From: Rhynchobatus australiae
Lineage: Eukaryota
Reading direction: 5' to 3'
DNA length: 63,485 nt
Assembly (NCBI GenBank): GCA_034780895.1
Contig: JAUZTB010000107.1
Location: forward strand, 33,268,758 to 33,332,242
Made by a program: the position numbers and the translations under genes. Numbering within the stretch: position 1 is the stretch's first letter; each line of letters opens with the position of its first letter. Below are positions 4,984 through 62,617 of this stretch, piece by piece. The notes under the pieces are model-generated. The model did not search any database. It had not been told where the DNA came from and saw nothing but the letters and a program-made list of their open reading frames with translations.

Positions 4984-5244
4984 GGCAGGCACGGTAGTGC
5001 AGTAATTAGTTTAACACTTCACAGCGCCAGCGACCTGGGTTCAAATCCAGCCACTGTCTGTAAGGAGTTTGTATGTTCTCCCTGTGTCTGCATGGATTTC
5101 CTCCGGGTTAGGACATTGTGGGCATGCTGTGTTGGCGCCAGAAGTGTGGCGACGTTTGTGGGCTGTCCCCAGAACACTACACAAACAGATGTATTTCACT
5201 ATGTGTTTTGATGTACATGTGACTAATAAAGATATCTTATCTTA
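4984..5244 (+). mobile_element. tRNA-derived V-SINE with an internal deletion and a (TCTTA)n tail
   Basis: Pol III B-box gggttcaaatcc; V-domain gagtttgtatgttctccctgtgtctgcatggatttcctccggg; tail aataaagatatcttatctta; likely TSD ttaaaat at 4976-4982 and 5242-5248. It aligns to the copy at 44963-45267 apart from a deletion of about 35 bp. Confidence 0.92.
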
Positions 5245-8189: not shown

Positions 8190-8895
8190 ATTTGGTGTAC
8201 CATCCACAGCAAATTGAATGGTTTGTCCCAACACCACCGGCATTTACTTCTTCCAGCTCTTCCCCAGAAGAGGGTGTAGATGCAGAGCAGTTGGGTGTTA
8301 ATAAAGTAGAAAACTATTCCACTCAGATCCAGGATAGCACATGATCTCAGATCACCACGAGTGTTGTCAATGACACCTTGCTCCTGCAACAAGTCAGCCT
8401 GAGCAGCAAATCCAAGCACCCTGACTCATGCCATCTACTATAAACTTTAAATAACATGCCAGCTCTTATCAAAAAGAAGTTTGTTATCTGCCAGTCTGAG
8501 CTGGCCAATTGAGGAATTCTACAGACATCACTGGAGCAGCTTTGGAATTTTTCAAGTTTGTAGAAGCTGGGGGCAATGGACAATTTCACAGCCACCAGCA
8601 AAGCATGTCTAACAAGCAGCAGGTGTTGGTCAAAGGAGATGCAATTGATCTACCACCAACTGCCATGATGGTCAGGGCCTCAAGAGACACCGGTGTTCCA
8701 TTGTATTAAGGATACTGAACCTCTGTGTATTCACAAAATATTCACAGAAAATGCTGGAGATGCTCAGCAGGATAAGCAACTCTGTAAGGAGAGGAACAGA
8801 GTTGACGTTTCAGGTTGATGACTGTTTATTGGATCTCTAAAGTATCGACTCTCTGTGTATTCATGCTGTGTACAGGGTATTGCCTCCTGTGAACT
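8190..8895 (-). pseudogene. PIF/Harbinger DDE transposase remnant (HARBI1-like), with frameshifts and deletions
   Basis: Minus-strand pieces: RRQYPVHSMNTQRFSILNTMEHRC; LLVAVKLSIAPSFYKLEKFQSCSSDVCRIPQ (cf. LPVAVKVT.ALNFYA.GSFQ...D.C.ISQ); GFAAQADLLQEQGVIDNTR (cf. GFP.VQG.IDGTH); FINTQLLC (cf. S.NVQ.VC); RWCWDKPFNLLWM (cf. WLLGD.GYPL..WL). Confidence 0.85.
8734..8850 (-). mobile_element. Short Penelope-derived fold-back insert with a decayed hammerhead-like motif and a 13-bp TSD
   Basis: Perfect direct repeat ctctgtgtattca at 8721-8733 and 8851-8863. The minus strand contains aacctGAAACGTCaactctg and the PLE terminal motif cctgctgagcatctccagcattttctg. Confidence 0.8.
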
Positions 8896-12109: not shown

Positions 12110-12690
12110 ATGCTCCTGTCTATATCTGCTCTAGACTCATACTTTGTTTCTTCATTTGTCATGTTTTTCCCCTCTTTTGTCTTGCACCATCATTTTTTCT
12201 GTAATTTTAACCTTTCCTGCTTTCCACCCTATCATACATAGACCTTAACTTTTGCTCTCTCCTCTCCTCCTCCTTTTTCCCCCATCTTGCAACTTGGCTC
12301 AGTTGTTCTATACTACAAAAGACGCATTAAAGCTGCACTGTATGTGGGGCCCATGCCTGCAATTTGCAATGCCATTGCAGAGCTAACAGATGAAGTTGGC
12401 TGCTTGACAACATTGCATGTGTCCCACAGACTCTATCCATATACACATCAAGTGCATAGTATTTCTGTGAGTGTTCTGTGCGCACGCAAAAGAGTCAAAG
12501 GCATTTAGATTTAATTTGCATAGCTCACAAAAATATTCCCTATGCAAAATAATTTCTACTCCCTCGTTTATCTAACTTTTTCCAGTTCTAATTAAAAGTC
12601 ATTGACCTAAAATATTAACTCCTTTCTTACTCCACAGATGTTGGCTGACCTGCTGAGTATTTACAACATTTTCTGTTTTTATTTTTGTAA
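12110..12690 (+). mobile_element. Penelope pLTR/3' terminal region, interrupted by an unrelated stretch of about 270 bp (about 12291-12564)
   Basis: Pyrimidine-rich pLTR-like body similar to 41570-41870, ending in ccagttctaattaaaagtcattgacctaaaatattaact...ccacagatgttggctgacctgctgagtatttacaacattttctgtttttatt. Confidence 0.65.
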
Positions 12691-13273: not shown

Positions 13274-13652
13274 GACCATACGGCCATAAGACATAGGAGC
13301 AGAATTAGGCCATTCGGCCCATCGAGTCTGCTCTGCCTTTCAATGACGCTGATTTATTTTTCCCTCTCAATCCCATTCTCCAGCCTTCTCCTCATAACCT
13401 ATGACACCCTTACTAATCAAGAACTTATCAAACTCTACTTTAAATACACTCAATGACTTAGCCTCCACAGCCGTCTGTGACAATGAATTCCACAGATTCA
13501 TCACCCTCTGGCTAAAGAAATTCCTCCTCATCACTGTTCTAAAGGGACGTCCTTCTATTTTGAGGTGTGCCCTCTGGTTCTGGACTCTCCCCCTACTGGA
13601 AACATCCTCTCCACGTCCACTCTATCCAGGCCTTTCAATATTCAGTGGGTTC
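13274..13652 (-). mobile_element. CR1 3' end (relatively young subfamily)
   Basis: Reverse complement aligns to the 3' end of the CR1 at 37320-37682 (RRNFFSQRV.NLWNSL; gggccgaatggcctaattctgctcctatgtcttatgg tail). Confidence 0.92.
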
Positions 13653-13884: not shown

Positions 13885-14018
13885 AAAAAAACAAAATGCT
13901 ATATGAATCTGTGAACAATTCAACAGGAGAAAGAAACAGAGTTAAAGTTTTAAGCCTTGATTTTTCATTGGAACCTCTGACTGATCTGCTGAGTATTTCC
14001 AGCAATTTTCTGTTTGTC
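13885..14018. mobile_element. Degenerate Penelope-terminal fold-back remnant
   Basis: An antisense arm (gaaagaaacagagttaaagttttaag...ttcattggaac) abuts a sense arm (ctgatctgctgagtatttccagcaattttctgttt). Confidence 0.55.
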
Positions 14019-19633: not shown

Positions 19634-19960
19634 GTGCAGGAATGATGTTTTTCTTGGCTGGTATGTTCAGAATCAAGGGGTCACATTCTCAGAATAAAGG
19701 ATTGACAATTTAGGAGAGAGATGGGAAGAAATATCTTCAGCCATTGAGTAATGGATCTTTGGAATGATTTTCCAAGAGGATTGTTGAGGTTCAGTCACTG
19801 AGTATAATTAAGAAAGAGATTGATATATTTTTTAGATATTAAGGAAATCAAGTGATATAGAGTTAAAGCAGGAGAATGGTGCTCTGATAAAAGATCTTGT
19901 GGGTGGACGAGCAGGCACAAGGGGCCAAATGACCTACTCTGACTTCTGTTTTATATGTTA
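19634..19960 (+). mobile_element. CR1 3' end
   Basis: aggggtcacattctcagaataaagg...gagatgggaagaaatatcttcagcc...ctttggaat; tail gagcaggcacaaggggccaaatgacctactctgacttctgttttatatgtt. Confidence 0.85.
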
Positions 19961-21029: not shown

Positions 21030-21884
21030 GATACCACCAACATGTCTGTCCATGGTCTCCTCCGCTGCCAAGTTGAGGCCAGATGCAGATTCGAGGAACA
21101 GCACTTCATTTTCTGATTTCTTTAACTTTCAGTAACCACTCCCCTCTGTCCATTCCCTTTTTTACCTAATCCCACCACACCCCCTCACCCTATCTCTTTG
21201 NNNNNNNNNNNNNNNNNNNNNNNNNNNNNNNNNNNNNNNNNNNNNNNNNNNNNNNNNNNNNNNNNNNNNNNNNNNNNNNNNNNNNNNNNNNNNNNNNNNN
21301 NNNNNNNNNNNNNNNNNNNNNNNNNNNNNNNNNNNNNNNNNNNNNNNNNNNNNNNNNNNNNNNNNNNNNNNNNNNNNNNNNNNNNNNNNNNNNNNNNNNN
21401 NNNNNNNNNNNNNNNNNNNNNNNNNNNNNNNNNNNNNNNNNNNNNNNNNNNNNNNNNNNNNNNNNNNNNNNNNNNNNNNNNNNNNNNNNNNNNNNNNNNN
21501 NNNNNNNNNNNNNNNNNNNNNNNNNNNNNNNNNNNNNNNNNNNNNNNNNNNNNNNNNNNNNNNNNNNNNNNNNNNNNNNNNNNNNNNNNNNNNNNNNNNN
21601 NNNNNNNNNNNNNNNNNNNNNNNNNNNNNNNNNNNNNNNNNNNNNNNNNNNNNGCCCACAACTTCCTAACCTGTACATCTTTGGAATGTGGGAGGAAACT
21701 GGAGCACCCAGAGGAAACCCACACAGACACAGGGAGAATGTATAAACTCCTTACAGACAGCGGCCGGATTTAAATTTGGGTTGCTGGCACTGGCATTACG
21801 CTAACCGCTACACTACCATGCGTACCCCTTCACTACCGTGCATCCTGACCCGCTGAGTTCCTCCAGCTCCTTTGTGTATTGCTC
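21030..21884 (+). mobile_element. Penelope 3' end (GIY-YIG C-terminus and pLTR) spanning a gap and interrupted by a V-SINE
   Basis: DTTNMSVHGLLRCQVEARCRFEEQHFIF matches the PLE endonuclease C-terminus (MSVHGLL.C..EA.RRLEEQHLIF). The terminal motif cctgacccgctgagttcctccagc is at 21844-21867. Confidence 0.8.
21654..21827 (-). mobile_element. V-SINE (same family as 4984 and 44963), 3' part lost in the gap
   Basis: Reverse complement gives the tRNA head gcatggtagtgtagcggttagcgtaatg and the V-domain ttctccctgtgtctgtgtgggtttcctctgggtgctccagtttcctcccacattccaaaga. Confidence 0.9.
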
Positions 21885-24429: not shown

Positions 24430-24523
24430 CAGAAGTCAGAACAAAAGGACTTCAACCTGAAATATTGGCTCTGCTTCTCTTCCCACAGATGCTGCCTGAC
24501 CTGTTCAGTGTTTCCAGCAATTC
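24430..24523 (+). mobile_element. Penelope-terminal motif remnant (next to a short CR1 tail at about 24350-24430)
   Basis: caacctgaaatattggctctgcttctcttcccacagatgctgcctgacctgttcagtgtttccagc. Confidence 0.7.
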
Positions 24524-24769
24524 AAAAGTGTCTACTATTGCTACGTCACAATGACTTTGGGACGTTGCTGCTTAAGCAAGGTTGTGTGAGGGAAGGGAAA
24601 ATGGGTTCACTAGTATAGAAGTTTAACAACTCTTAAGTCTCTTGCTCCTGCACCAGCAACAATATTGCCTTCTTCTTTTCATGTATGGCTAAAGAGATTG
24701 TTAGTGATGGTACATTAATTTATCAATTGAGAATGCTATGATTAGGATACATGATGATGCTGGTGCCTG

Positions 24770-30100: not shown

Positions 30101-30290
30101 CACAAGGACATTTTGCAGACACAAAATGGAAATATTGACTTTATATTTTTCCTGAATTGTTTTTAATTTGTATCCAGATTAAGCTTTTCATGTTTTAAAA
30201 CATTAAAACCTCTATTTGTAAAAGAACTCTATTGAAGTACCTCAACAAAATATGAATTTTAGCCACAGATACTATTGAACAGGCTACATA

Positions 30291-30359
30291 CACTGAAAAT
30301 TGTAGGCACCTGAGGAGAATCAACAAATGACTCTCCTCAGGTGCCTATAATTTTCAGTG
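30291..30359. mobile_element. 69-bp hairpin MITE, probably Tc1/mariner-derived, flanked by TA
   Basis: 32-bp inverted arms (30291-30322 and 30328-30359) with 2 mismatches and a 5-nt loop acaaa; TA at 30289-30290 and 30360-30361; termini CACTG...CAGTG. Confidence 0.75.
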
Positions 30360-30674
30360 TACATGCTGTTATCATTGAGACAAACCTCAGTAACCTCCAC
30401 AAGTCAAAAGCAAGATAAAATTCATCATTCTCTTTCACTACACATGATCTTGTGGGTCTTCATCCCCTGCTGGACTCATACAAACTGGTTGTACTAAAAG
30501 TCAGCAAGTAGCAGCTGGCACTGCAACATGATAAATTAGGGTTTATACTGAGAGCACATCAGGATAGAAGTTGGTCCTCAATCGCTTGCACTAAATGCAT
30601 GACAGAATGGCAGCTGTACAGTATGTTCTTCATCCAAGTTCCATTTACCCAGTGGAACTTTCTTATTTTACTTG

Positions 30675-31863: not shown

Positions 31864-31966
31864 ACCCACTACCATGGTGCACGTTAGCTTCTACCAAAGA
31901 TCAATTACCACCATCTACCGTCAATCTGAAAAGTAGAAACAAAGGACAAAAGAACTGCATGTCACA

Positions 31967-32335
31967 GTGTGGCTACAGAACATTCTCAAGGGGAAGGTTA
32001 AGCAGCAAGAAGTCATTGTGCATGTTGGCACAAATAGCATAGGTAGGGAAAGTGATGATGTCCTGTGGAGTGAATATAGGGAGCTTGGGAAGAAGTTAAA
32101 AAGCAGGACCTTGAGGGTAGTAATCTCTGGATTACTTCCAGTGCCACGTGCTAGTGGGGGCAAGAATAGGACGATATGGCAAATGAATGCATGGCTGAAA
32201 AATTGGTGTAGGGGGCAGGGATTCAGATTTTTGGATCATTGGGATCTCTCTTGGGGCAGAGGTGACCTGCACAAGAGCGACAGGTTACACCCAAACTGGA
32301 GGGGGGACCAATATTCTGGCGGGCAGATTTGCTAG
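31967..32335 (+). pseudogene. CR1 ORF1 SGNH/GDSL esterase domain
   Basis: VIVHVGTNSIG (GxND block), VVISGLLPVPR, NAWLKNWCRGQGFRFLDHW, DRLHPN (DxxH block). Confidence 0.9.
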
Positions 32336-32489
32336 TGCTGCTTGGGTGGGCTTAACCTAGATTAGCAGGGATGTAGGATCCCGAGCATCAGGGAGGCAAA
32401 TGAGAGGCTGGAAAATGATGCAGAAGTCAGTGACAGCAAGTTGAATAGGCATGACAAGCAGGACTATGGCCAGGCATGAGGAAAGCCTA

Positions 32490-35190
32490 TTGGATTAAAT
32501 TGCATTTATTCCAGTGCAAGAGGTCTGACTGGTCAGGCAGATGAATTTAGGGCTTGGATATCTCTTTGGGACTGGGATATTATAGCCATTACAGAAACAT
32601 GGCTAAAGAAGGGACAGGACTGGCAGCTCAAAGTTCTGGGATACAGTGTTTTAGGTGGGATAGAGGCAGAGGAAAGAGAGGAGGGGGAGTTGCGTTTTTG
32701 ATTAAGGGGAATGTCACAGTAGTAGTCAGAGATGAAATTACTGAAGGACCAGCCAGTGAGGTTTTATGGGTGGAGCTGAGAAATAAGAAGGGGATGATCA
32801 CAATGTTGGGGTTATATTATAGGCCCCCAAATAGTCAACGGGAATTAAAAGAACAAGTATGCAGGGAGATTGTGCAGAGTTGTAAGATTAATAGGGTTGT
32901 CATAGTAGGGGATTTTAACTTTCCTAACANNNNNNNNNNNNNNNNNNNNNNNNNNGCTCAGATGGGGTGGAATTTGTTGAGTGTGGTCAGGAAAGTTAAA
33001 GAAACTATAGAGGGCCCTACTAGGTAGAGGGCAAAGCTTGACCTACTCTGGGGTAATAGGGCAGGGCAAGTGACTGTGGTGACAGAGAGGGAGTACTTTG
33101 GGACCAGTGACTATAGTTCTATTAATTTTAAAATAGTTACAGAAAGGGAGGTTCAAGTCCTAAATTGGGGCAAGGTGAAATTTGGCAGTGAGACAGGAGC
33201 TTGCAAAGGTTGATTAGAGCAGGTTATTTGCAGGCAAAGGGACCACAGGACCAAAGGGTGAGATAGTGAGAGCTCAAGGTCTGCACGTTCCTGTCAGTGT
33301 GAGGGACAAGGCTGGTTGGAGTAGGGAAGCCTGGATGATGAGATGTATTGAGACCCTGGCCAGAAAAAAGAAAGAGGCATGGATCAGGTACAGGCAGCTG
33401 GGATCGTGAATTCCCAGAGGAGTATAAGGGATGCAGAAGTGTACTCAAGAAGGAAATTAGGAGGGCAAGAAGGGGGCATGAGATACCTTTGGCAGAGAAG
33501 ATTGAGGAAAATCCAAAGAGATTTTATAAGTATATTAAGGTAAAAAGAGTAACTAAAGAGAGAATAGGGCCCCTCAAAGACCAAAGGGAACACCATTGTG
33601 TGGAGCCACAGGAGATGGGCAAGGTCCTTAATGAATATTTCTCCTCTGTTTTTACAGAAGACTTAGGAACTAGGAAAAGTAAATGGGGAAGTCTTGGGAA
33701 TGGTCCGCATTACAGTAGAGGAGGTGCTGGATGTCTTAAAAGCTATGAAGGTAGATAAATCTCCAGGTACCTGACCAGGTATATCCAAGAACATCATGGG
33801 AGGCTGGAGAAGAAATTGCGGGAGCCTTGACTGAGTTATTTGCATCATCTTTAGCTGCAGATGAGGTGCGGGTAGACTGGAGGGAAGCAAATGTTGTGCC
33901 TTTATTTAAGAAGGGCAGCAAAGAAACCCCTGGGAACTATAGGCCAGTAAGTCTAACATCTGTAGTAGGTAAGTTACTGAAGAGGATTCTGAGAGATAAG
34001 ATACACGTACATCTGGAAAGGCAGGGGTTGATTATGGGTAGTCAGCATGGCTTTGTGCATGGAAGATATCCCTTACGAACTTGATTGAGTCTTTTGATGA
34101 GATGACCAAGAAAGCTGATGAAGGTAGGGCAGTAGACATGGTTTATATGGATTTCAGTAGGCCTTTGACAAGGTTCCACATGGTAGGCTGTTCTGGCAGG
34201 TTAGATCAGATGGAATCCAGGGAGACCTGGCTAATTGGATACACAATTGGTTTGATGGTAGAAAACAGAGGGTGATAGAAGGTTGTTTCTTGGACTGGAG
34301 GCCCATGACTAGTGGTGTGCCACGGGGTCAGTTCTGGGCCCATTGTTGTATATCAACAATTTGGATTAGAACGTAAAAGGGATGGTTAGCAAGTTTGCAG
34401 AAGACACTAAAATAGGTAGTATAGTGGACAATGACAAAGGTTATCAAAATTTTCAGTGGGATCTTGATCAGTTGAGTAAGTAGGCCAAGTAATGACAAAT
34501 GGAGTTTAATTCGGATAAGTGTGAGTTTTGCATTTTGGAAAGTCAATTCCAGGTAGGGCTTCCACAGTGAATGGCGGGGCCCTGGGAAGTGTTATGGAAC
34601 TGAGGGGCCTTGGAGTACAGGTACATGGTTCATTGAAAGTGGAGTCACAGGTAGACAGGGTGGCGAAGAAGACTTTTGGCATGCTGGCCTTCATAAGTCA
34701 GGGCATTGAGTATGAAAGTTGGGAGGTCATGGTGTGGTTGTACAGGACACTGGTGAGGCAGTACTTGGAGGATTGTGTTCACTTTTGGTCACCCTGCTGT
34801 AGGAAAGATATTACTAAACTGGAAAGAGTGCGGAAAAGATTTACAAGGATGCTGCCAGAACTTGAGGGACTGAGCTACAGGGTGAGGTTGGACAGGCTAG
34901 GACTTTATTCCTTAGAGTGTAGGAAACTGAGGGGTGATCTTATAGAGGTGTATAAAATTATGAGGGCATAGATAAGATGAATGCACTCAGTCTTTTTCCC
35001 AGGGCTGAGGAATCAAGAACTAGAAGGCATAAGGTGAAAGGAGAAAGATTTAAGAGGAACATGAGGGGCAACTTTTTTACACAGGGGGAATGTGGAACCA
35101 GAGGAAGTGGCTGAGGCAGGTACAATAACAACTTTTAAAAGACAGTTAGACAAGTACATGGATTGGAAAGGTTTAGAAGGTTATGGGCCA
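32490..35190 (+). pseudogene. CR1 ORF2 (APE endonuclease and reverse transcriptase), disrupted
   Basis: The ORF-track fragments 32554-33027, 33348-33758, 33827-34084, 34081-34275 and 34528-34971 are consecutive frameshifted pieces of one ORF2. Confidence 0.93.
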
Positions 35191-36934: not shown

Positions 36935-37682
36935 ACATCTTCTAAATGGGGAGAAAATTAAGAAATCAAAGGTGCAAAGAGACTTGGGACTTGGGTGCAA
37001 AGAGACCCTCGAGTTTAGCTTGCAGGTTAAGTCAGTAAAAAAGAAGGTAAATGCAAGGTTACCATTCATTTCAAGATGACTAGAATATACGTAAAAGCAA
37101 GGATGTACTGTTGAGGCTTCATAAGGCGTTGTTCAGACTGCATCTGGAATATTGTGAGCAATTCTGGGCCCTGTATCTAAGGAAGGATGTGTTAGCCCTG
37201 AGGAGAGCCCAGAGTAGGTTCTAAAAATGATCCCAGGAATGAAAAGCTTAACATATGAGGAGCATTTAATGTCTCTGGGCCTGTACTCAATGGAGTTCAG
37301 AAGGATGAGGGGGGATTTCATTGAAACCTACCAGATACCAAAAGGCCAGGATTGAATGGACATGGAGAGGATGTTTCCATTAGTAGGATCCAAGAGCACA
37401 GCCTCAGAATAAAGGAACATCCCTTTAAAACTGGGATGAGGAGGAATTTCTTCAGCCAAAGGGCAGTGAATCTGTACAATTCATTGCCACAGAGGGCTCT
37501 GGAGGCTAAGTCGTTGGGTGTATTTAAGGCAGAGATTGATAGGTTCTTGACTGGTAAGAGGGTTAAGGGTTACATCAAGAAGGTGGGATAATGGGGATGA
37601 AAAAATCAGCCGTAATTGAATGGTGGAGCAGACTCAATGGGCTGAATGGCCTAATTCTGCACCCATATCTTATGGTCTTATA
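36935..37682 (+). mobile_element. CR1 3' portion
   Basis: HLEYCEQFWALYLRKDVLAL, FRRMRGDFIETYQI, MRRNFFSQRAVNLYNSLPQRALEAKSLGVFKAEIDRFL; tail gggctgaatggcctaattctgcacccatatcttatggtcttat. Confidence 0.93.
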
Positions 37683-37774
37683 GGCAAACAATACTGGAAA
37701 AATATGACTAAGGATCACATTTCATAATATTGCCAGGATATTGAAGTGTAAACCATTTTTAAGTGACTTGTTAA

Positions 37775-38112
37775 GGTAGATTCAGTATTAATTTATTTCC
37801 TGGCTGGGATGTCTAATTTAAGGGATCAGTCCCAAAATAAGGGACTGATCATGCAGGACAGAGTTGTGAAGACATACAGTACCTTCAGCAAGAGTGCAAT
37901 GAATCTTTGGAATTATCTTCCTCAGAGGGCTAGGAAGGTTCAGCCACTGAGTATTTTCAAGACAGAAATGAATAGTTTTTTTTGTGTATTAAGGGAATCA
38001 TTGGATATGGGATTAGTGCAGGAAAGTGACACTGAGGTAAATGATCAGCCATGATCTAGTTGAACAGTGGAGCAGACTGGAGGCCTACTGCCGCTTCTGT
38101 TTCTTATGTTCT
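37775..38112 (+). mobile_element. Older CR1 3' end
   Basis: FSKSAMNLWNYLPQRARKVQPLSIFKTEMNSF; tail ggcctactgccgcttctgtttcttatgtt. Confidence 0.85.
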
Positions 38113-41284: not shown

Positions 41285-41321
41285 ATTATTGCCATCCAAA
41301 TGTGATTTGGATGGCAATAAT
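41285..41321. repeat. Perfect 17-bp inverted repeat with a 3-nt loop
   Basis: attattgccatccaaat-gtg-atttggatggcaataat. Confidence 0.95.
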
Positions 41322-41489: not shown

Positions 41490-41872
41490 GAGTTCAACAA
41501 TTTTAAGTAATCAGCATTCCCATAATTTTTATTTCAGACTTTAGTCCTTCGCAGTGTTTTCCTTGATCGTTTCAGATTTCTCCTATTTACACCTTCTGCT
41601 GACCTACACACAGACATTTTATACATGTCTTTGTCCCTTCCGCATTCACCTTGCCCTATCATCCATTTTTCATTAGTTAATCTCTCCCCACGTTACCTTA
41701 GACCCTCCTTTTTTACTGCCTCCCCTTCTTTCCTTCCTCTTTAAACTTTCTTCATCCCTGATTCTTCCCAGTTCTGATGAAATTCTTTTTTCTTGCTCCA
41801 CAGGAGCTGTCCAATCTGCTGAGTAATTTCTGCTTTAGATTCAAACTTACAATATCTGTAATATTTTGCTAC
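41490..41872 (+). mobile_element. Old Penelope pLTR remnant
   Basis: Pyrimidine-rich body like 12110-12290, then ccagttCTGATGAaa and ctccacaggagctgtccaatctgctgagtaattt...aatatctgtaatattttgct. Confidence 0.6.
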
Positions 41873-44962: not shown

Positions 44963-45267
44963 TAAGATAAGATAAGACACCTTTATTAGTCACATGTACA
45001 TCGAAACAAACAGTGAAATGCATCTTTTGCATGGAGTGTTCTGGGGCAGCCCGCAAGTGTTGCCAAACTTCCAGCACCAACATAACATGCCCACGACTTC
45101 ATAATCTCTATGTATTTGGAATGTGGGAGGAAACAGGAGCACCCAGAGGAAACTCATGCAGACACGGGGAGAACATACAAACTCTTTACAGACAGTGGCC
45201 GGAATTGAACCTGGGTCGCTAGCGCTATAATAGCATTACACTAACCACTACACTACCGTGCCTGCCC
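44963..45267 (-). mobile_element. Full-length V-SINE with (TCTTA)n tail
   Basis: tRNA head gggcaggcacggtagtgtagtggttag...caggttcaattcc, complete V-domain, tail gtacatgtgactaataaaggtgtcttatcttatctta. Confidence 0.95.
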
Positions 45268-45319
45268 TCAATGTGAATGTTTTTCAACAGAGGAATTAGT
45301 TACCTTTTTCTCAGAAAAA

Positions 45320-46008
45320 GAACAAACTGCTGGAGGAACTCAGTGGGTCAGGCAGCATCTATGGAGGCAGAGAGATGGTTGATGTTTCCACTGCTCTTCT
45401 GTTCTTCAGCCACTTTTTTACTAAGACTCGCTACTACATCCATGTGCCTCTCCTCAGTATTTGTCTTCACAACTATCATGTCCCACATGGCTTCCACCTC
45501 TGTTTTCAGGCCTCCCAGTTCAGCCCCAGCCAAGATCTCAGGTATTTATAATTAATCTCTGTTTCTTATTTTTAGGTCAATCTCTGATTCACTTTGCAAC
45601 TTTTCTCCTAATTACATCCTTACTACCACTTCCGATTTCTTAAGGGATACTTTAGTAAACATATTTTAAAAGTCAAGATCAATAATATTTGTAGCATGCC
45701 ACATCAACTAATTTGGTCACATCCTCAAAGTCATTCAATTCACCACTTCTCTCAATGGTTTTCCCTCTGTATCCTACATTCTACCATCTCCGCCATGCAT
45801 CAGTACCCTCTGTCCCCTTTTCTCTTTCTACCACAGCTTAGTGCCTCACTTTTCCACATGTGCCACAGTGTGCAGGGTACTGATGCAGGGTCTCGACCTA
45901 AAATGTCGACCATCCCTCTGTCCCCACAGATGCTGCCTGACTCACAGAGTTCCTCCAGAAGTTAGGTTTTCGCTCCAGATTACAGCATCTACAGTCTCTT
46001 CTATCTCT
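45320..46008 (+). mobile_element. Penelope-derived element with inverted terminal arms enclosing captured DNA
   Basis: The left arm 45320-45388 is the reverse complement of about 45900-45970 (cagatgctgcctgac...gagttcctccag). Hammerhead-like motif at 45876-45911. The interior includes a duplicate of 44066-44254. Confidence 0.8.
45544..45732 (+). repeat. 189-bp direct duplicate of 44066-44254
   Basis: Ungapped alignment at offset 1478 with about 12 mismatches by hand count. Confidence 0.95.
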
Positions 46009-47076
46009 CTTCTTTTTCTTCTCTTATAGCTTTATCAGAATAACTTCATGGAAAGGCTCTTTTCCACTCTACACACATCTGGATGTTGTTTATTTCTTTA
46101 AAAAATCTTGTTCATTTCTTGATCTTCAAATCCAGCATCTACATTTCTTTACCTTAAGTTCAAGGTATTGACAACAAAAACCTGGCTGATATTTTCTACG
46201 TTTTTGTTCTATTGCTAGTGTGTAAATCCATACTAACTTTCCAAAAGAGGGTTATTTATCATTTTATTAGCTTTCCATTGATTTTTTTTTAATTTCTCTT
46301 TTCATTCAATGGTACATTTGGTTCTCTGATGAGCTGTGGTATTCCATTCTTTCCACCTGATATTTATCTGTAGCGTTTACTGTTGACGAAGAGGGTATCA
46401 AATGTAGGAGCTGGTTTTTTTGTTATGGTATCAAATACAGGGTTAATAATTCCACCACTCAAAGCAAAACATAATGGTCACAGGGACTTGATTCACACTC
46501 TGAATGATCTCATATCACCCAGTGTAGCAATCAGGAAATTATAATTGGCCTCAGCACTCTTGGCCTTGAAAGTAACAGAAGCAGCAAAAGTTACCATGTG
46601 CATTCACAAAAGACATGAGAGGGCTGGAGCAGGTGTGCTTACCATGTGTCCCTCATCTCGAATGACGTGTTAACACTTGCTGTCTCAGTCCCACAGATTG
46701 TAAGGTTCCAAAGACCAGCACAATCGGCATTTGGTGGGTATTGGAAATAAAACTGAGGAAGAAATTATTTTACAGTTATATCACAAGAATCTTTATCTTA
46801 ACAAATATCCCTTCAGAACAGTTGAGTGGGCGCAATAAGGGAGAAGAGGAGAAGTACTAGATTACTTGGAATGGGGTTAGATTTGTGTGTAACTGACCTA
46901 AAACTCAAAACAAAAAGCACATGGAAACTGAACAATGGGAAAGATATTTGACTATTCTCTAAGTGAATAGTTCCCATCTTGGAGGAATTTAAAGGCCTCA
47001 TAATTCAAAAAACAGCAAGGCACTTGTTGTTTTGTGTGCATGTCCACTATATTGTCATCACTGGCAAAGTACAGAG

Positions 47077-47100: not shown

Positions 47101-49889
47101 AGAGCATCCTGTTCCAGTGGAAGCTGTCAAAAGCACCTGGTAAAATTGCCCGCAGAGTTTTTTTTCATATAATGATTCTTATGAATCAGTTTAACAAGGG
47201 TGATATTGTTTTCTGTTGCTGATGCAGACTTACACAGTTTAATGAAGTCAAGCCCATGCAAAGCTCAGTAAACAAATGACAATGTTTAGAAAAGAGAGAA
47301 ACTCATTTCCTTTGATACAGCAGAAAAACCAGGCAATGTGTGTTTATAATTACTGTCTCATCAAGTTAATGCACAAGAATCTACTAGCTATTCATTTATA
47401 CATAAACTGCGTAAGAAATTCTACCTTCCTATTTCTGCACTAGTTCTGTTGAGCAATTATTTTATATTTATGCAATTATTTGATTCAGGACAGTAAACAT
47501 ATTGGAGAAATTGCCAAGGTATCCTTTGTAAAGAGGATGAAGACATTATGTTTGATAAATTATGAACATTAATTCTCAAGGACAACCTTGTTTTAAAATC
47601 TAAAGCTACATTTGAGACTTTAGAAATCAGTTGGTCAAACTTAGGAACACTTGGTGAAATCCCAAAAAAAATCATTTTGCTTGGCAGCATATCTAAAGGA
47701 CAAGTTGCTACTAGCTCTAAAGTGGTAAGCCAAAAGCAAATTCACACTCCTGGGCACCAGCTGATCAGAAATAATATAATCTGAAATGAAATCCACCCCT
47801 TCCATTCTGCGGGTTAGAAAGAAATATGCCAGTGTTGTCTGGACCAAAAGGTCTCAAGGGACATTCTTGAGTCTTGCGGTTCCTTCGTGTGCCACTAGCT
47901 AATCTCTTTATATTTTTATGGATTCCTTGGTGTTCAGTGGGATTTTACAAGCAGACAGTTTTTATTGGACTGTGAATATAGCTTTTATTCAGATTCCTTT
48001 TCAAAGTGCATAAAACTATCAGGAAATTTTTAATATCTATAAATCATTTTACTACTGGACATTTGTGAAGGAGTGAGCATTTTCCAGATGTGCTCCCAGC
48101 TATCTATTATTAAAAAGAGAATGCTGCTTTATTTCAAAAGTTGGAGAATAGCAGTTGACATTACTTTTGAAGTTAAGTGTTGTTGGTTCAAGTAACATCC
48201 AATTATTTTTCTTATACTCATTTTAACTGAAGTAATGCACACAGTTGGCCAATCTCTATATGTGTTCACATTACATTCTGGCCTGTTGTTCATGTGTTTT
48301 CCATCAAGGAAGTCTGTGGTTACCTTCATGATTCCATTGGACTGGAAAAACATAGCTAATATGGTGAGATCTGGAAAAGCTTTGATGCTGAGTTTTACAA
48401 ATAAACCCCTGGAACCCATATGTTTTAGATTCGATTCTTTAATTTATTTCCTATAAATGTCCATTAAATATTCCATTGAACCAACATATGTGCTAGTGCA
48501 GTTAAAAAGCAGAAAAATAAAATAATTGCTAGATGACTGGATTATTTTCATTCTTTTACCTTTAGTGCTACTGCTCTCCCTGAAGAATACAGTAAGTAAA
48601 TCACTGTCTGTCAGATTCCCAGCTCAAAGATAAATGCTTTGATTTACACAACTTTAAAGACTGTCAGAATGTTAAAATAAATATAGCCCCATTATTTGTT
48701 GTTTAGGAGATTTCAGTTGAGGCCAAGTGTGTGCAGTTTACTGTAGCTGATATTATAAATGTAAATGTGATATACTCCTGTCAGTTGGTAGTTTGTGCCT
48801 CCATGAAGCTTAAGTCTGCTTTTAAATGAATGTTTCATGCTCGTTTTCCTTCTATTACTCATGAAAAAAGTATCCTGTATGGATGCTGACAACAATTAAC
48901 AATCACTCAAAAATTTGTGTAAGTGGTATCTATCTTTATTCAGGAAGGCAGTAGACATTACATAGCAAACCCTATGACTGCGATAGGTCAACTGAAAAAC
49001 ATTAGGAAACCAATAGGCAGCTTCAAATAGCCCACTAAAGCTCAGCAAATTACCGATGGAAGGCATGAATCTGAAGCCGGTCAATTTTGGTTGCCTTAAG
49101 TTCTGCTTTGAAATTTACCATTACACCACAATAAAATAATCACATCTGAAGATGATATTATTGTGAACACTAATAATTGGTAAAGATTCTTCTATTTGCA
49201 TCAGTGCTTCCAGATATAACAAAAGCAAAGTGAAGGTCCTTTTCATGAAATGCATTCTCCACTCCTCTTTAATTCACTAATTCTTGTTTTCAATCTAATT
49301 TCTATTAGATCGCTGGTCTCACCAGGCAATGACAGTGGCCTTAAGCTAAAAGGATTTTGGCATCAATTGGCAAATTTAGTTCCCTTGTCTCTTCAGAGAC
49401 TGTTATTGACACCTTACGTTGCTAGGCAGCAATCTAAGAACCTTCAATAATGTCAGAAAGGTGCTAATAATGTAATTATGAACTATTAAAAAAGTAAAAA
49501 AGTTTATTGGTGATCATAAATGTAACAGCAATCAGGTTCTAATACAGAAACATTTTGAGACTGCTGATGGTATGAATGTGGTTGCATTTTAGTTGACCTT
49601 GAGCTTGGACTGCTGAATTTATTTACCTATAAAGTATTAAATGAACAATAAACTACAAATTTAAAACCAGGATTTAATTTTGTTTTCCTTTCTTTCCAGT
49701 CTATTTCAGAATATTTCAAAATTTAGAATGGGTGAAACTAACTGTTTTCCTTCTTGAGAAACACAGCTCATTTCCTTTGAAACAGTTAGGAAATGATACT
49801 TAAAATGGCATATTTTCCTTTGTCACTAATTTAGGTGAGTGTTTGAACTGTTCCTGATCTATTACTCATGTTTTCATATATTGTATCAA

Positions 49890-49975
49890 AAATTGCCAGA
49901 AATACTTGTCAAGTCAGGCAATGTCTGTGAGGAGACAAAGAGAATTAAGTTTCAGATCAATGATCTTTCACAAAG
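49890..49975 (-). mobile_element. Penelope-terminal motif remnant
   Basis: Minus strand: tgtgaaAGATCAtTGATCTgaaacttaattctctttgtctcctcacagacattgcctgacttgacaagtatttctggc. Confidence 0.65.
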
Positions 49976-50699
49976 TGAGGAAAAGATAGAAAGCTTAGCC
50001 CAGAGACCAGAGGCTATGCACTTTTGGTGTGCCAAATGGATGCTGCATATGCACTAATGCCAAAGCAAAATTCAAAAGTAAATTGCAGAATTGGGTCATC
50101 CTTGCTTCAATGAATCATTATCATGGTATACTCCCACTTAACACCTTTAAAACCTGACCTGTGCATTTCACAGATAGCAGCTTCTTGCTAGACATGCAAC
50201 TTTGATATTTGCACAGTGACTCATGGGAAGTGGGAAAGTACTTTTAAAGAGACTCCACCATGGCTGCCTATAGAAATGAGGGAAAAAGAGTGGTGAGGAT
50301 CATGGAAAATGGGGGTAAGAGGAGGGGTGAGGGGAGGGGGGTAGATCAGGCTGGGGGAATGACAATGATGCCCAGTGATTGTGGGCTCTCCTGTGACTGG
50401 GGTTAATAGATTATGAAATACACTTACCAGTTGTAGAAGCCTCCATCTTCTCTATCTTTACATCACGCATGGTTCACTTCTTTTAGCATGACACACTCCT
50501 TGTTTTTTTGCAAGTTAATTATGCAGGTTGTACATCAGGAATATATGGGATAAGTTGGTAGGGTGGAAGACAGGAGTGGTTAAATAACTAAAAATGAAAA
50601 CGTTACAAGTTGAAACAGCATGGTAACGAAACAAGTTTAAAAAAGAAGCCAGCATAGAGGAGATATAAATAGGAGAAGCTGGATCCTTGCCTGAATTTG

Positions 50700-51590
50700 C
50701 CTTACAAAAATCCTGGGAATGCTGGAAATATGAAATAAAGATTCTGACAGAGGCACAAGAGACTGGGATAACACACAAAACACTGCAGGGCCTCAGTGTG
50801 TCAGGCAGCATCTGTGGAGGGAAGTGGACTGTCAATGTTTTGGGTCGAGTTCCTTCATCTGGGCAGTCCAGATGAAGGATCTCAGCCCAAAACATTCTGA
50901 CAAGCTGATTATCTGAAGTTGTTGAAAGTGATATTGTATCTGCAAGGACGTAACGTGCCTTGGGTTTACATTGAGCTTTATAGGAAGAGTGTAGGAGACT
51001 GAGGACGGTGGGGGAATGTATGAAAAATTAAAGTGAAGACTGAGTGGAAGCTGCAGGCCGAACAGGAGTGTTCTGCAAAGTGGTGACTCAATCCACATTT
51101 GGTCTCCTCATTGCAGAGAAGGCAAACATTGAGAATAGCAAATACAGTATCCTATTTCCCATGGAAAGATTCTTTGAGACACTACAAATGGAGATAAGGG
51201 TAGCATCTCCTCCCATCACATGGGAAAGTACAGTGAAAAGAAGAGTACATGTTAGTGAAGGAGGAGGATTGAAACAGAGAACTGTAGAAGCAACTTTCCT
51301 TACAGAATGTTCTATAAGAATGGGAGAAGAAGAACTGTCAGGTTAGAAGTATTGGAAATTGTGAAGGATAATCCATTGAATGTGGAGTCGGTTGGGGTGA
51401 AAAGAGAAGACACAAGAATCTTAACCAGTTTTGAGAGGGAAAAGATAATTTTTTTAATGGATACACAGAACATGAAATGGACACAGTGAAAGGTCCTATC
51501 AATTCAGAAGAAGAGGAATCCTTGTTGAGAATAACAGAAGACATATTGGGAGGTCTGATATGGAAAATTACATCATTAAAACTTCCATAA
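50700..51590 (-). mobile_element. Penelope-like element remnant: RT C-terminus, GIY-YIG endonuclease and terminus
   Basis: Minus strand gives FHPNRLHIQWIILHNFQYF (cf. YHP..L.IQ.IILRNFR.L) and YCICYSQC...LCNEETKCGLSHHFAEH (cf. IYCI.C..C...YIGET.R.L..RF.EH). Confidence 0.8.
50750..50893 (-). mobile_element. 144-bp Penelope-derived fold-back insert with two opposed hammerhead-like motifs and a 9-bp TSD
   Basis: Direct repeat attctgaca at 50741-50749 and 50894-50902; 29-bp inverted repeat 50834-50862 / 50868-50896 (26/29 matched). Confidence 0.85.
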
Positions 51591-59039: not shown

Positions 59040-60855
59040 GAATCATTAGGACATTACAGGACAGAGGGAAGCCATCCAGCCATTGAGTTCTCATTGACTC
59101 CTGGTGGAGCTATCCAACTAGTCCCATTGCCCCCCTCTTTCCCCATATCTCTAGAAAATATTTCTCTCGTTCCTTTTCAGTTCCCTTTTGAAGGCCCCCC
59201 ACCAACCTTACCCACACTGGGTTCAATGCCATAACTCTGCATATTGATGTTTTTTACACATTTCCTCTGAACTGCTTGTCCACCATTCTAAATCAATGTG
59301 CTCTAGTCCTTGAACCATTCTCCTCTGAAGACAGCTTCTCCCTATTTACCCAATCTAAATGCACCATGCTCTGTACACCTCTATCAAATCTCCCCTCAAC
59401 CAATTTTACTCCAGGGAGAGCAACACCAACTATTCTATTCTAACCTTGTTGTTGAAATTTCTCATCACTGGAATCTCTTATCTAGTGTCTCTGCTTCTTT
59501 CCTCAAGTGAGGTGGCCAGAGGTGTCACAGTACTACAGATGGCATAACCAGTGGTGTGTAGAATTTCAGATTAACCTCCCTGCAGCACATCCAGCATCTG
59601 CAGAATGTTTTGTGTCTCTGTATAACCTCCCTGGTTTTTGTATCAGGGTCATAGAGAAATACATCACAGAAACAGGCCCGCAGGAATCCACACCAACCAT
59701 CAAGCACCCATTTTTACACAAATCCTACTCTACCCCATTTTATCCTCCCTACATTCCCATCAACTCCCCTCATCCACACACCAGAGGCATGGAAGGAGAC
59801 AGGAACGCAAAGAGGAAACTGATGCAGTCACAGGGAGAACATGCAAATTCTACAGAGACAGCACCAAAGATCAAGGTTGAACCTGGGTCGCTGGAACTGT
59901 CAGGCAAGAGCTCTACCAGCTGTTCCACTGTGTATTCTGTACCTTTATTTACAAATCCTAGAAACCTACACGCCTTACTAATCACCAACCAAAATAGCTG
60001 ACACTTTATTTATGGGTGTACACATCCAGCTGCTTCTGCACAGCCTTTGGAATGACATTAATAGTCTATTTTGATTCTCACTGTTCTTTCTATCAAAGTG
60101 AATCTGTCCACATTTCTCTGAACCATTTTCCATATGGAACTTATCAACCCAAATTGTATGTCCATTTCTGTACTTTTTCAGTCTAATCCTCACATTTTAC
60201 CACACCTCCATGTTTTGTATCATCTACAGATTTTCAAATGTTTTCATGTATTCCCATGTCTCAATCATTAATATTTATCCACAGAAGAAACTGTATCAAC
60301 ATTCACCCCTAAGGTGACTCCTGGATCCCATTATCTGATCTAAAAGACAGCCCTTTATCGTAACTCATTGCTTTCTACTTTTAGTCGATCTGTTACCCAA
60401 GCTGTTACTGACCCTTATGTTCCATGAGTCTGAATTTTGCTTTTATGTAAAACTTTGTCAAAAGCCTTCCAAAACCCATGGAAACTACATCTTCTTCATT
60501 CCCTTCATCAACTTTCTCATCTAGCCATTCCACCAGGGTAATCAACATATAATTCACTATTAATACATCATATTGGCTCTCCTTAATTAACTCAAGCGTC
60601 TCCAAGCACCTACATATCCTTGATTATTGTTTCAAAAAGAACTTTGGGTTAATCTGACAGGCCTATAATTGTTGGACTTGCCCCACTTGCCATTTTCCTC
60701 TGCTGTATCTGTGGAGGATTTGTGGCGACTCTTCTGCAATCTCCCCTCACACTTCCCTTAGCAATCAGGATGTATCCCACCTGGCCACAATGATTTGTTT
60801 ACCTTAAGCATGGACAGCCTTTCTGGTCTCTGCTTCTTATCAATTTGCACCCCAT
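59040..60855 (-). mobile_element. Old CR1 RT-to-3' end with many deletions, interrupted by a SINE
   Basis: NYRPVRL, LIKESQYDV...LVEWLDEKVDEGNEEDVVSMGFGRLLTK, CGQIHFDRKN; CR1 3' UTR at about 59040-59150. Confidence 0.8.
59644..59930 (-). mobile_element. HE1-type V-SINE with a CR1-derived tail
   Basis: Head cacagtggaacagctggtagagc...caggttcaacc; V-domain gaatttgcatgttctccctgtgactgcatcagtttcctc; tail gggcctgtttctgtgatgtatttctctatgac (cf. CR1 tail 35257-35286); TSD tgtat at 59639-59643 and 59931-59935. Confidence 0.85.
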
Positions 60856-62072: not shown

Positions 62073-62617
62073 CATTTTGGGCTCTATTGCTGGAAATCAT
62101 AGCAACAAGACTTATGTCAGATTGTAGTCAGCAAAGCCCCAGCAAGCAACTGTCTGTACATTCAGGACTTGTGCATTCACACAGGAGTCCCAAACATCCT
62201 GACACAAGGGACTTGCAGAATTTCACAGGAAAATCTGGGCTCTCACTGAATTTCTCCACTGAAGATATTTGGCTTGTTGAGTATTTCAAGTATCTTCTGA
62301 CTTTCTATCAAATTTCCAGCATTCACCATATCTCACCTTTCTATTTTGCATATTATTGTCTCAGGAATTGGTTTTGGCCCACTTATGAGTCTAAAATAAG
62401 TAATGCATTCAAGTGGTGCTGCTAATCTCATGGCCACAAGAAAGGCACATGAAAACATTTCTTTTATATTGCAGCAGGCTTGCTGTGAAATCTCTTCTCC
62501 CTCTCCACGCCTTAGAATCTGCAGTTTTGTTGTCTTTGCATTAGGTTAGGGTAAAGGTTAGGATTTGCATTAAGATTAGGCTTAGCAATTGATACTACAC
62601 TGTCACGTTACTTAGCG

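Follow-up and report, generated by a model that had tools for sequence, protein, structure and literature searches.

How did a short piece of non-coding DNA come to carry one ribozyme-like motif twice, in opposite directions, and what decided where the second, inverted arm ends? The locus lies in a 63,485-nucleotide stretch of Rhynchobatus australiae DNA (the whole of which is called the window below). A first-pass annotation, made from the letters of the window, had reported a 9-bp target site duplication (TSD) around a 144-bp insert and a 29-bp inverted repeat in the right part of that insert. Both were found where they had been described. The direct repeat (50741–50749/50894–50902) is identical at nine of nine positions and encloses 144 bp; the inverted repeat (50834–50862/50868–50896) pairs at 26 of 29 positions around a 5-nt loop. 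The window has just one other locus with an equally good inverted repeat, five block-shuffled windows have none, and a hairpin fold is predicted on both strands (z −4.2 and −5.9; 0 of 200 shuffles in each case). Flanking repeats of at least 9 nt around a 144-nt segment were counted at 52 of 59,542 window positions when 3 nt of slop were allowed, the real one included, and at 234 of 59,542 with 10 nt of slop, which puts the probability of a chance occurrence at 0.0009–0.004. The joints listed for contigs of four sequencing runs (15 of 35) include no empty-site joint; since the empty site was not seen, the TSD is called from position and identity only.

The element reads on the minus strand, with its family 5′ end at the head-to-head junction and its family 3′ end next to the left TSD copy (Table 1). 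No poly(A) tail is present at 50750. Beyond the left TSD copy lies a short fragment similar to the 3′ tail found in a related subfamily; it is likely an older truncated copy beside which the insert landed. Joints leading from this fragment into the insert (50739 to 50792–50801) are present in all four sequencing runs. No homology was found on the right flank, and the notion that the insert splits an older copy was rejected for that reason. The junction is no assembly artefact, because orthologous contigs of three other organisms cross it.

Table 1. Coordinates in the window of the parts of the insert, of the adjoining fragment and of three other family copies
Feature	Position	Strand	Details
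Family copy without inverted head	8721–8863	-	13-bp flanking direct repeat 8721–8733/8851–8863; intact G12-A13-A14-A15.1-C-G-U-H stretch
Probable third inverted-head copy	13926–14009	.	head 13974–13926 (-), model 4–53, E 0.025; body 13977–14009 (+), model 61–93, E 0.00016
Second inverted-head copy	45793–46010	+	arms 45793–45809/45874–45890, 16/17 paired, 64 nt apart
Short fragment outside the TSD, similar to a 3′ tail (related subfamily)	50716–50742	-	score 34 against 62301–62328; background 99th percentile 28, maximum 49
Left TSD copy	50741–50749	.	starts ATT; 1 nt different from the X3 orthologue, 2 nt from the X9 orthologue
Repeat body, downstream of the predicted cut site to the family 3′ end	50750–50833	-	about 16 nt shorter than copy 45872–46012; top family depth at 50801–50827
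Direct (left) hammerhead relic	50829–50863	-	core A4, A12, A16.2; helix II 2/4 pairs; helix I 3′ strand 50833–50829
Head-to-head junction (hairpin loop) at the family 5′ end	50863–50867	.	loose-end agreement drops to about 0.4 behind 50862
Inverted (right) arm, 33 nt	50864–50896	+	from helix I 5′ strand to position 17; 3/4 pairs in helix II; final 3 nt common with the TSD
Right TSD copy	50894–50902	.	alignment to the element across the cut site: 7/9 bases, one 2-nt gap

The two arms had been read as opposed hammerhead-like motifs. Both very likely do derive from a hammerhead, but the right arm lacks the 3′ strand of helix I and is not a complete motif. The insert itself is not an intact minimal type I hammerhead of Penelope-like elements (PLEs). 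Both arms have an A at position 4, so that the consensus core 3–9 (as set out in PMC3088659 and PMC4209133) is not matched, and an A at position 12, so that the G12-A13-A14-A15.1 stretch is not matched. Helix I of the left arm has four of its five pairs, helix II is incomplete in both arms (Table 1), and positions 15.2–16.2 are C-A, not palindromic. According to two sources, U4 and G12 belong to the hammerhead core (PMC3088659) and G12 is the general base (PMC6155905); lacking G12, both arms are predicted to be catalytically dead. RNA reading through the locus would be expected to be locked in a hairpin, and no present function is indicated for the locus. A strict regular expression for the core gave two matches, neither inside the insert. 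When the decayed copies were scored against Rfam, no hammerhead match appeared at E values up to 5–10; the search returned only sub-threshold miRNA and snoRNA matches, with hairpin matches of up to 26.6 bits (gathering score 90).

Contigs of four of 24 listed sequencing runs (X1, X2, X3 and X9) were placed on positions 50450–51250 at 80% likeness. All four gave matches (6,389, 6,440, 8,843 and 10,967 contigs; depth ratios were not taken as copy numbers), with depth concentrated on 50774–50908. The repeat of which the insert is one copy is short and very abundant, and the insert is present in three related organisms. Run X1 showed no differences from the window sequence and may come from the source sample. 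For X2, X3 and X9, orthologous contigs span both flanks and run into the insert, three records cross the junction, and the letters that differ from the window number 8 of 383, 11 of 448, 17 of 362, 34 of 450, 7 of 180 and 31 of 450. Since the insert was found in these three runs, the insertion is older than the corresponding splits. Pattern scans for other copies gave none in viral contigs, none in genome contigs and no fold-back pattern in metagenomes; two metagenome matches to the body pattern, of only 22 nt, were taken as chance. The kind of element is already known. No description of this particular family was found in the full-text literature, the scope of the search excluding Repbase, Dfam and subscription papers; the supplements of bioRxiv 10.64898/2026.07.22.740005 may list it.

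The placed contigs also bear on what the ancestor looked like. Among the 40 of 74 difference rows listed, the family-majority letters at 50830 (91–92% of placed depth), 50850 (93–94%), 50851 (87–89%) and 50863 (46–59%) each restore a helix I or helix II pair that is broken in the insert. Position 4 is U in seven, and A in five, of the 12 loose-end rows that cover it. G12 is found in all four rows behind 50840 (which were chosen for a mismatch there) and in four of the six other window copies covering that position. One junction carries the canonical 12–17 stretch together with helix I, and the layout fits the minimal-hammerhead consensus for PLEs shown in Fig. S3 of PMC4209133. The family ancestor, pieced together from partial copies, was very likely a minimal type I hammerhead, to judge by these sequences. 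In a covariation analysis of eight decayed window rows (one misaligned, one without the 3′ strand), the signal did not exceed that of shuffles, 146 of 500 of which reached the paired share. Loose ends at 50840–50849 show the family variants A4 or C9 to be abundant, which suggests a wide spread of subfamilies whose catalytic core is altered.

Other copies in the family have inverted heads too, and the end points of these differ. Joints of the body to an inverted head that starts at 50863–50867 make up six of the 15 joint rows listed (35 overall) and comprise 17 contigs, some of which may be one locus seen across several species. Non-orthologous copies that cross the junction account for 14 of the 32 pieces listed, two of them with 31 letters on both sides; these pieces were picked for length from about 33,200 and give no frequency. 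The joints 50822–50904, 50823–50911 and 50823–51111, with 22–24 letters a side, are also present. Joints of the 'opposite strands' type at 50823/50895–50896 were set aside as evidence, since ordinary copies yield them. Behind 50862, the loose ends show a similar weak purine-rich consensus in all four runs (agreement about 0.4), and some copies may extend upstream of the family 5′ end toward a longer parent element.

A profile built from six family copies in the window recovered these six and three more pieces at E < 0.001, along with three further ones at E 0.02–0.06; the best E value in the reversed-window control was 0.71. In two of the six window copies tested, an inverted match lay upstream and scored beyond the 99th background percentile, namely in the 50741 insert and in the copy with arms at 45793–45809/45874–45890. 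The latter has a C at core position 9, and its helix I has G-C in place of an A-U pair; the locus also contains a direct repeat of 12 nt (45806–45817/45914–45925). The C9 state marks a subfamily, because it is also found in two loose-end rows of the contig placement. The spacer between the arms of this copy (45810–45873, 64 nt) was considered as a second body copy and dropped, the match being of just 12 nt. In the probable third copy, at 13926–14009, the opposed head and body come close to abutting in the model, a pattern resembling a twin-priming inversion. More decayed copies and fragments of the superfamily lie at 8721–8863, 12584–12685, 24434–24536, 45311–45412, 49884–49970, 21844–21879, 41790–41828 and 62231–62328.

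Since the two arms of the insert were said to share non-canonical bases, copied from one template or homogenized later, their common changes were considered one by one. Both arms do have A4, A12 and A16.2, but as evidence for a common origin all three are weakened. In the right arm A16.2 is the first base of the TSD, and is therefore target DNA that says nothing of a shared template; A4 is a family-level variant; A12 stands in a CpG context, by the family, and recurs in two of six other window copies. The informative base is one that the first-pass annotation had missed. At position 10.3 (50851/50879) the arms share a state open to at most 11–13% of the placed depth, 87–89% being different, and this favours a single template, or else conversion afterwards. 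A single template from which both arms took their common changes had no G12, however, and would not be expected to cleave. The ideas of a single template and of cleavage are therefore at odds, unless decay set in afterwards and spread from arm to arm by copying. Three mismatches between the arms, together with CpG decay, blur the view of the template.

The reading that we prefer, with somewhat more confidence than doubt, is that the insert is an old copy whose minimal hammerhead has decayed and whose head is mirrored, that it represents a truncated PLE end or a non-coding derivative, and that its inverted arm arose by fold-back and microhomology at ATT. Its assignment to a PLE, as truncated end or as non-coding derivative, is likely. 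It has an inverted copy adjoining its 5′ end head to head and a short TSD of 9 bp, both of which are traits of EN+ PLEs. The earlier proposal of a non-autonomous mini-element mobilized by PLE enzymes therefore holds as far as a PLE-type non-coding insert with a TSD is concerned, while mobilization by PLE enzymes is something we infer, because no autonomous partner was found. Pfam searches detected no reverse transcriptase or GIY-YIG family in 114 of the 218 stop-free frames near family copies and no PLE domain in eight long window frames; the frames gave six weak unrelated matches (E 0.014–0.045). The insert is not built as a MITE or DNA transposon, its inverted repeat being confined to 50834–50896, with 84 bp outside it on one side.

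Under the preferred reading, a staggered cut by a PLE endonuclease, at an ATT next to the older tail fragment, would have given the 9-bp TSD. Reverse transcription would have started at the family 3′ end, passed the intact cut site and reached the 5′ end at helix I, where the new strand may have folded back, primed itself and copied 30–33 nt of its own product. A switch to the far target end would have followed, by microhomology at the NUH triplet, and both arms would have decayed afterwards. The PLE enzyme of the anole, studied in one lizard element, cuts both strands and prefers ATT (PMC11167929). PLE insertions with an adjacent inverted copy, TSDs of 8–10 bp and head-to-head palindromes read as self-priming are described in PMC3846280 and PMC8557442. 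Against this reading stands the fact that published inverted copies end at the pLTR end, while the 33-nt arm stops about 84 nt earlier.

The outer end of the inverted arm had been attributed to ribozyme cleavage plus microhomology, on the grounds that it falls on the NUH triplet and that this overlaps the first three letters of the TSD. The placement was correct: position 17, the last in the ungapped match of the right arm, coincides with TSD base 3, and the end is ambiguous over 50893–50896. That hammerhead cleavage set this boundary is not supported. Among 115 element positions, none but the NUH triplet matches the start of the TSD over 3 nt or more, and the triplet is the best gapped match too, so microhomology alone would pick it. 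With one 2-nt gap the homology extends 4 nt beyond the cut, to 50902. The extension takes in base 1.4, whose state is a minority one, and points towards an uncleaved template; by a rough estimate the chance of such an extension is 1–2%. The predicted cut site of the left arm (50834/50833) is still intact in the DNA, and both arms lack G12 and have A4 and a broken helix II pair. Arm ends were to be compared with the cut site, and in the window that comparison covers three copies: the insert stops at position 17, the 45793–46010 copy ends at position 10.3, 17 nt short of it, and the 13926–14009 copy about 18 nt past it (model 35). For cleavage to have made the arm, the hammerhead would have cut the RNA, and the 33-nt 5′ product, reverse transcribed from its new 3′ end with the aid of 3-nt microhomology, would have become the inverted arm. 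The halt of the ungapped arm at position 17 fits this, as do two non-orthologous pieces that also stop at 50896, though any longer arm would do so too. In 16 of the 17 listed fold-back joint contigs the last aligned body base lies at 50822–50829, near the cut site, and five of six fold-back junctions join at helix I, beside it; these joints count against the preferred reading because cleavage predicts them too. Helix I joints need no cut, however, since helix I has 5 nt of self-complementarity; alignments break at 50823 and 50829 anyway, because the insert mismatches the family at 50824 and 50830, and 15 of the 35 joint rows are those listed. According to PMC11167929, the hammerhead of the anole PLE cleaves when its protein is present, but insertion in vitro is as efficient when the hammerhead is catalytically dead, and none of the RNA-seq reads stops at the cut site. 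A cleaved origin for this arm is thus quite improbable; it keeps a small share of our belief because three arms cannot settle how end points are distributed. We are just as sceptical of the wider proposal that cleavage sets PLE template ends in vivo, the 33-nt 5′ product becoming the inverted arm and the 3′ product starting the direct part in other copies. If true, a very abundant family would record thousands of ribozyme cuts in genomic DNA.

An uncleaved RNA could also have been copied by twin or dual priming, in which the second target end anneals at the ATT match and primes an inverted cDNA, the two cDNAs then being joined head to head. Microhomology at the junction of TSD and arm is what such priming predicts (PMC2837659), the PLE enzyme extends both strands in vitro (PMC11167929), one RNA accounts for the shared base, and the 13926–14009 copy, whose parts nearly abut (model 53 and 61), shows the classic pattern. 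Internal deletion is, however, typical of these events (PMC2837659), whereas here 29 nt are duplicated as a palindrome, for which self-priming is simpler (PMC3846280). We therefore infer fold-back in preference to twin priming, which we consider unlikely here. A further possibility places the origin at the DNA level or outside the PLEs: the copy would have been moved by another retroelement, the inverted duplication would have come later, in repair or replication, and the 9-mer would be partly chance. The absence of PLE protein from the 114 of 218 nearby frames searched is consistent with this, as are the lack of an empty site among the listed joint rows and a CR1/L2-like LINE remnant in the window. 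It is at odds with the low chance of the flanking repeat and with the recurrence of inverted heads that start at the same family 5′ end. The missing poly(A) tail speaks against it as well, and so does the absence of tRNA matches: ARAGORN, which is insensitive to decayed heads, found no tRNA gene in the window, and the family 5′ end aligns with helix I instead. Such an origin appears very unlikely.

For now the locus counts as an old insertion of an ordinary kind, common to four related organisms, and one decayed copy cannot tell what PLE hammerheads do, their function being called unclear in PMC8557442. The family could: its thousands of copies, recurrent inverted heads and A4 and C9 core variants provide a built-in comparison of arm ends between dead and intact ribozymes.

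Several other features of the window were recorded. Two unrelated palindromes lie at 30289–30361 (73 nt) and 41285–41321 (37 nt). A broken LINE remnant at 31937–34971, which we take to be of the CR1/L2 type, has an SGNH/GDSL esterase-like frame followed by an AP-endonuclease frame (Pfam). A direct duplication of 189 nt (44066–44254/45544–45732; 94% identity) has its copies 1.5 kb apart with other repeats between them. Contig depth of 115–1,257, as against 6–15, marks another, lower-copy repeat at 51044–51124, and X3 and X9 have 12 extra letters at 51053–51054 and 3 at 51189. Two more dispersed repeat families have several copies each, one at 4984–5244, 21654–21827, 44968–45267 and 59790–59861, and the other at 13278–13635, 19637–19896 and 37341–38046.

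Hammerhead variants of PLEs have reportedly been treated by Lunse et al. With the minimal type I hammerheads of PLEs described in PMC4209133, the insert and its family share helix I, a core with one extra nucleotide, a helix II opening with G10.1-C11.1, the absence of helix III and, in the family, a palindromic 15.2–16.2. Thousands of dispersed single motifs are likewise common to both, and opposite-strand pairs 100–700 bp apart are reported there. The insert differs in that its core fails at positions 4, 12 and 16.2, and its family in that the A4 and C9 variants are abundant; its two motifs cannot form a dimer in cis, because they are 5 nt apart and opposed. The searched part of the supplement of that paper lists no cartilaginous fish. 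Non-LTR retrozymes (bioRxiv 10.64898/2026.07.22.740005) have been reported in one chondrichthyan genome; like the insert, they are non-coding, carry a type I hammerhead, are proposed PLE derivatives and occur as dispersed monomers. Their definition, however, asks for tandem units and for two or more complete motifs in the same direction, whereas the insert is a single dispersed copy with a partial, inverted second motif. L1 5′ inversions made by twin priming (PMC2837659) resemble the insert in their TSD-bounded opposed parts and in the microhomology at the target junction, but it has no poly(A) tail and shows duplication, not deletion, at the inner junction.

Poseidon PAc of Anolis carolinensis (PMC11167929), compared by its described features, has start sites at defined internal stem-loop positions; in common with it are a TSD that begins with ATT, a hammerhead upstream of the 3′ end and uncleaved RNA copied into the direct arm. 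The complex EN+ PLE insertions of PMC3846280 and PMC8557442 differ from the 144-bp insert, which has no ORF and whose 33-nt arm ends not at the pLTR end but about 84 nt short of the 3′ end, but they share with it an inverted copy at the 5′ end, a palindromic junction, a 9-bp TSD and an older relative adjoining the insertion.
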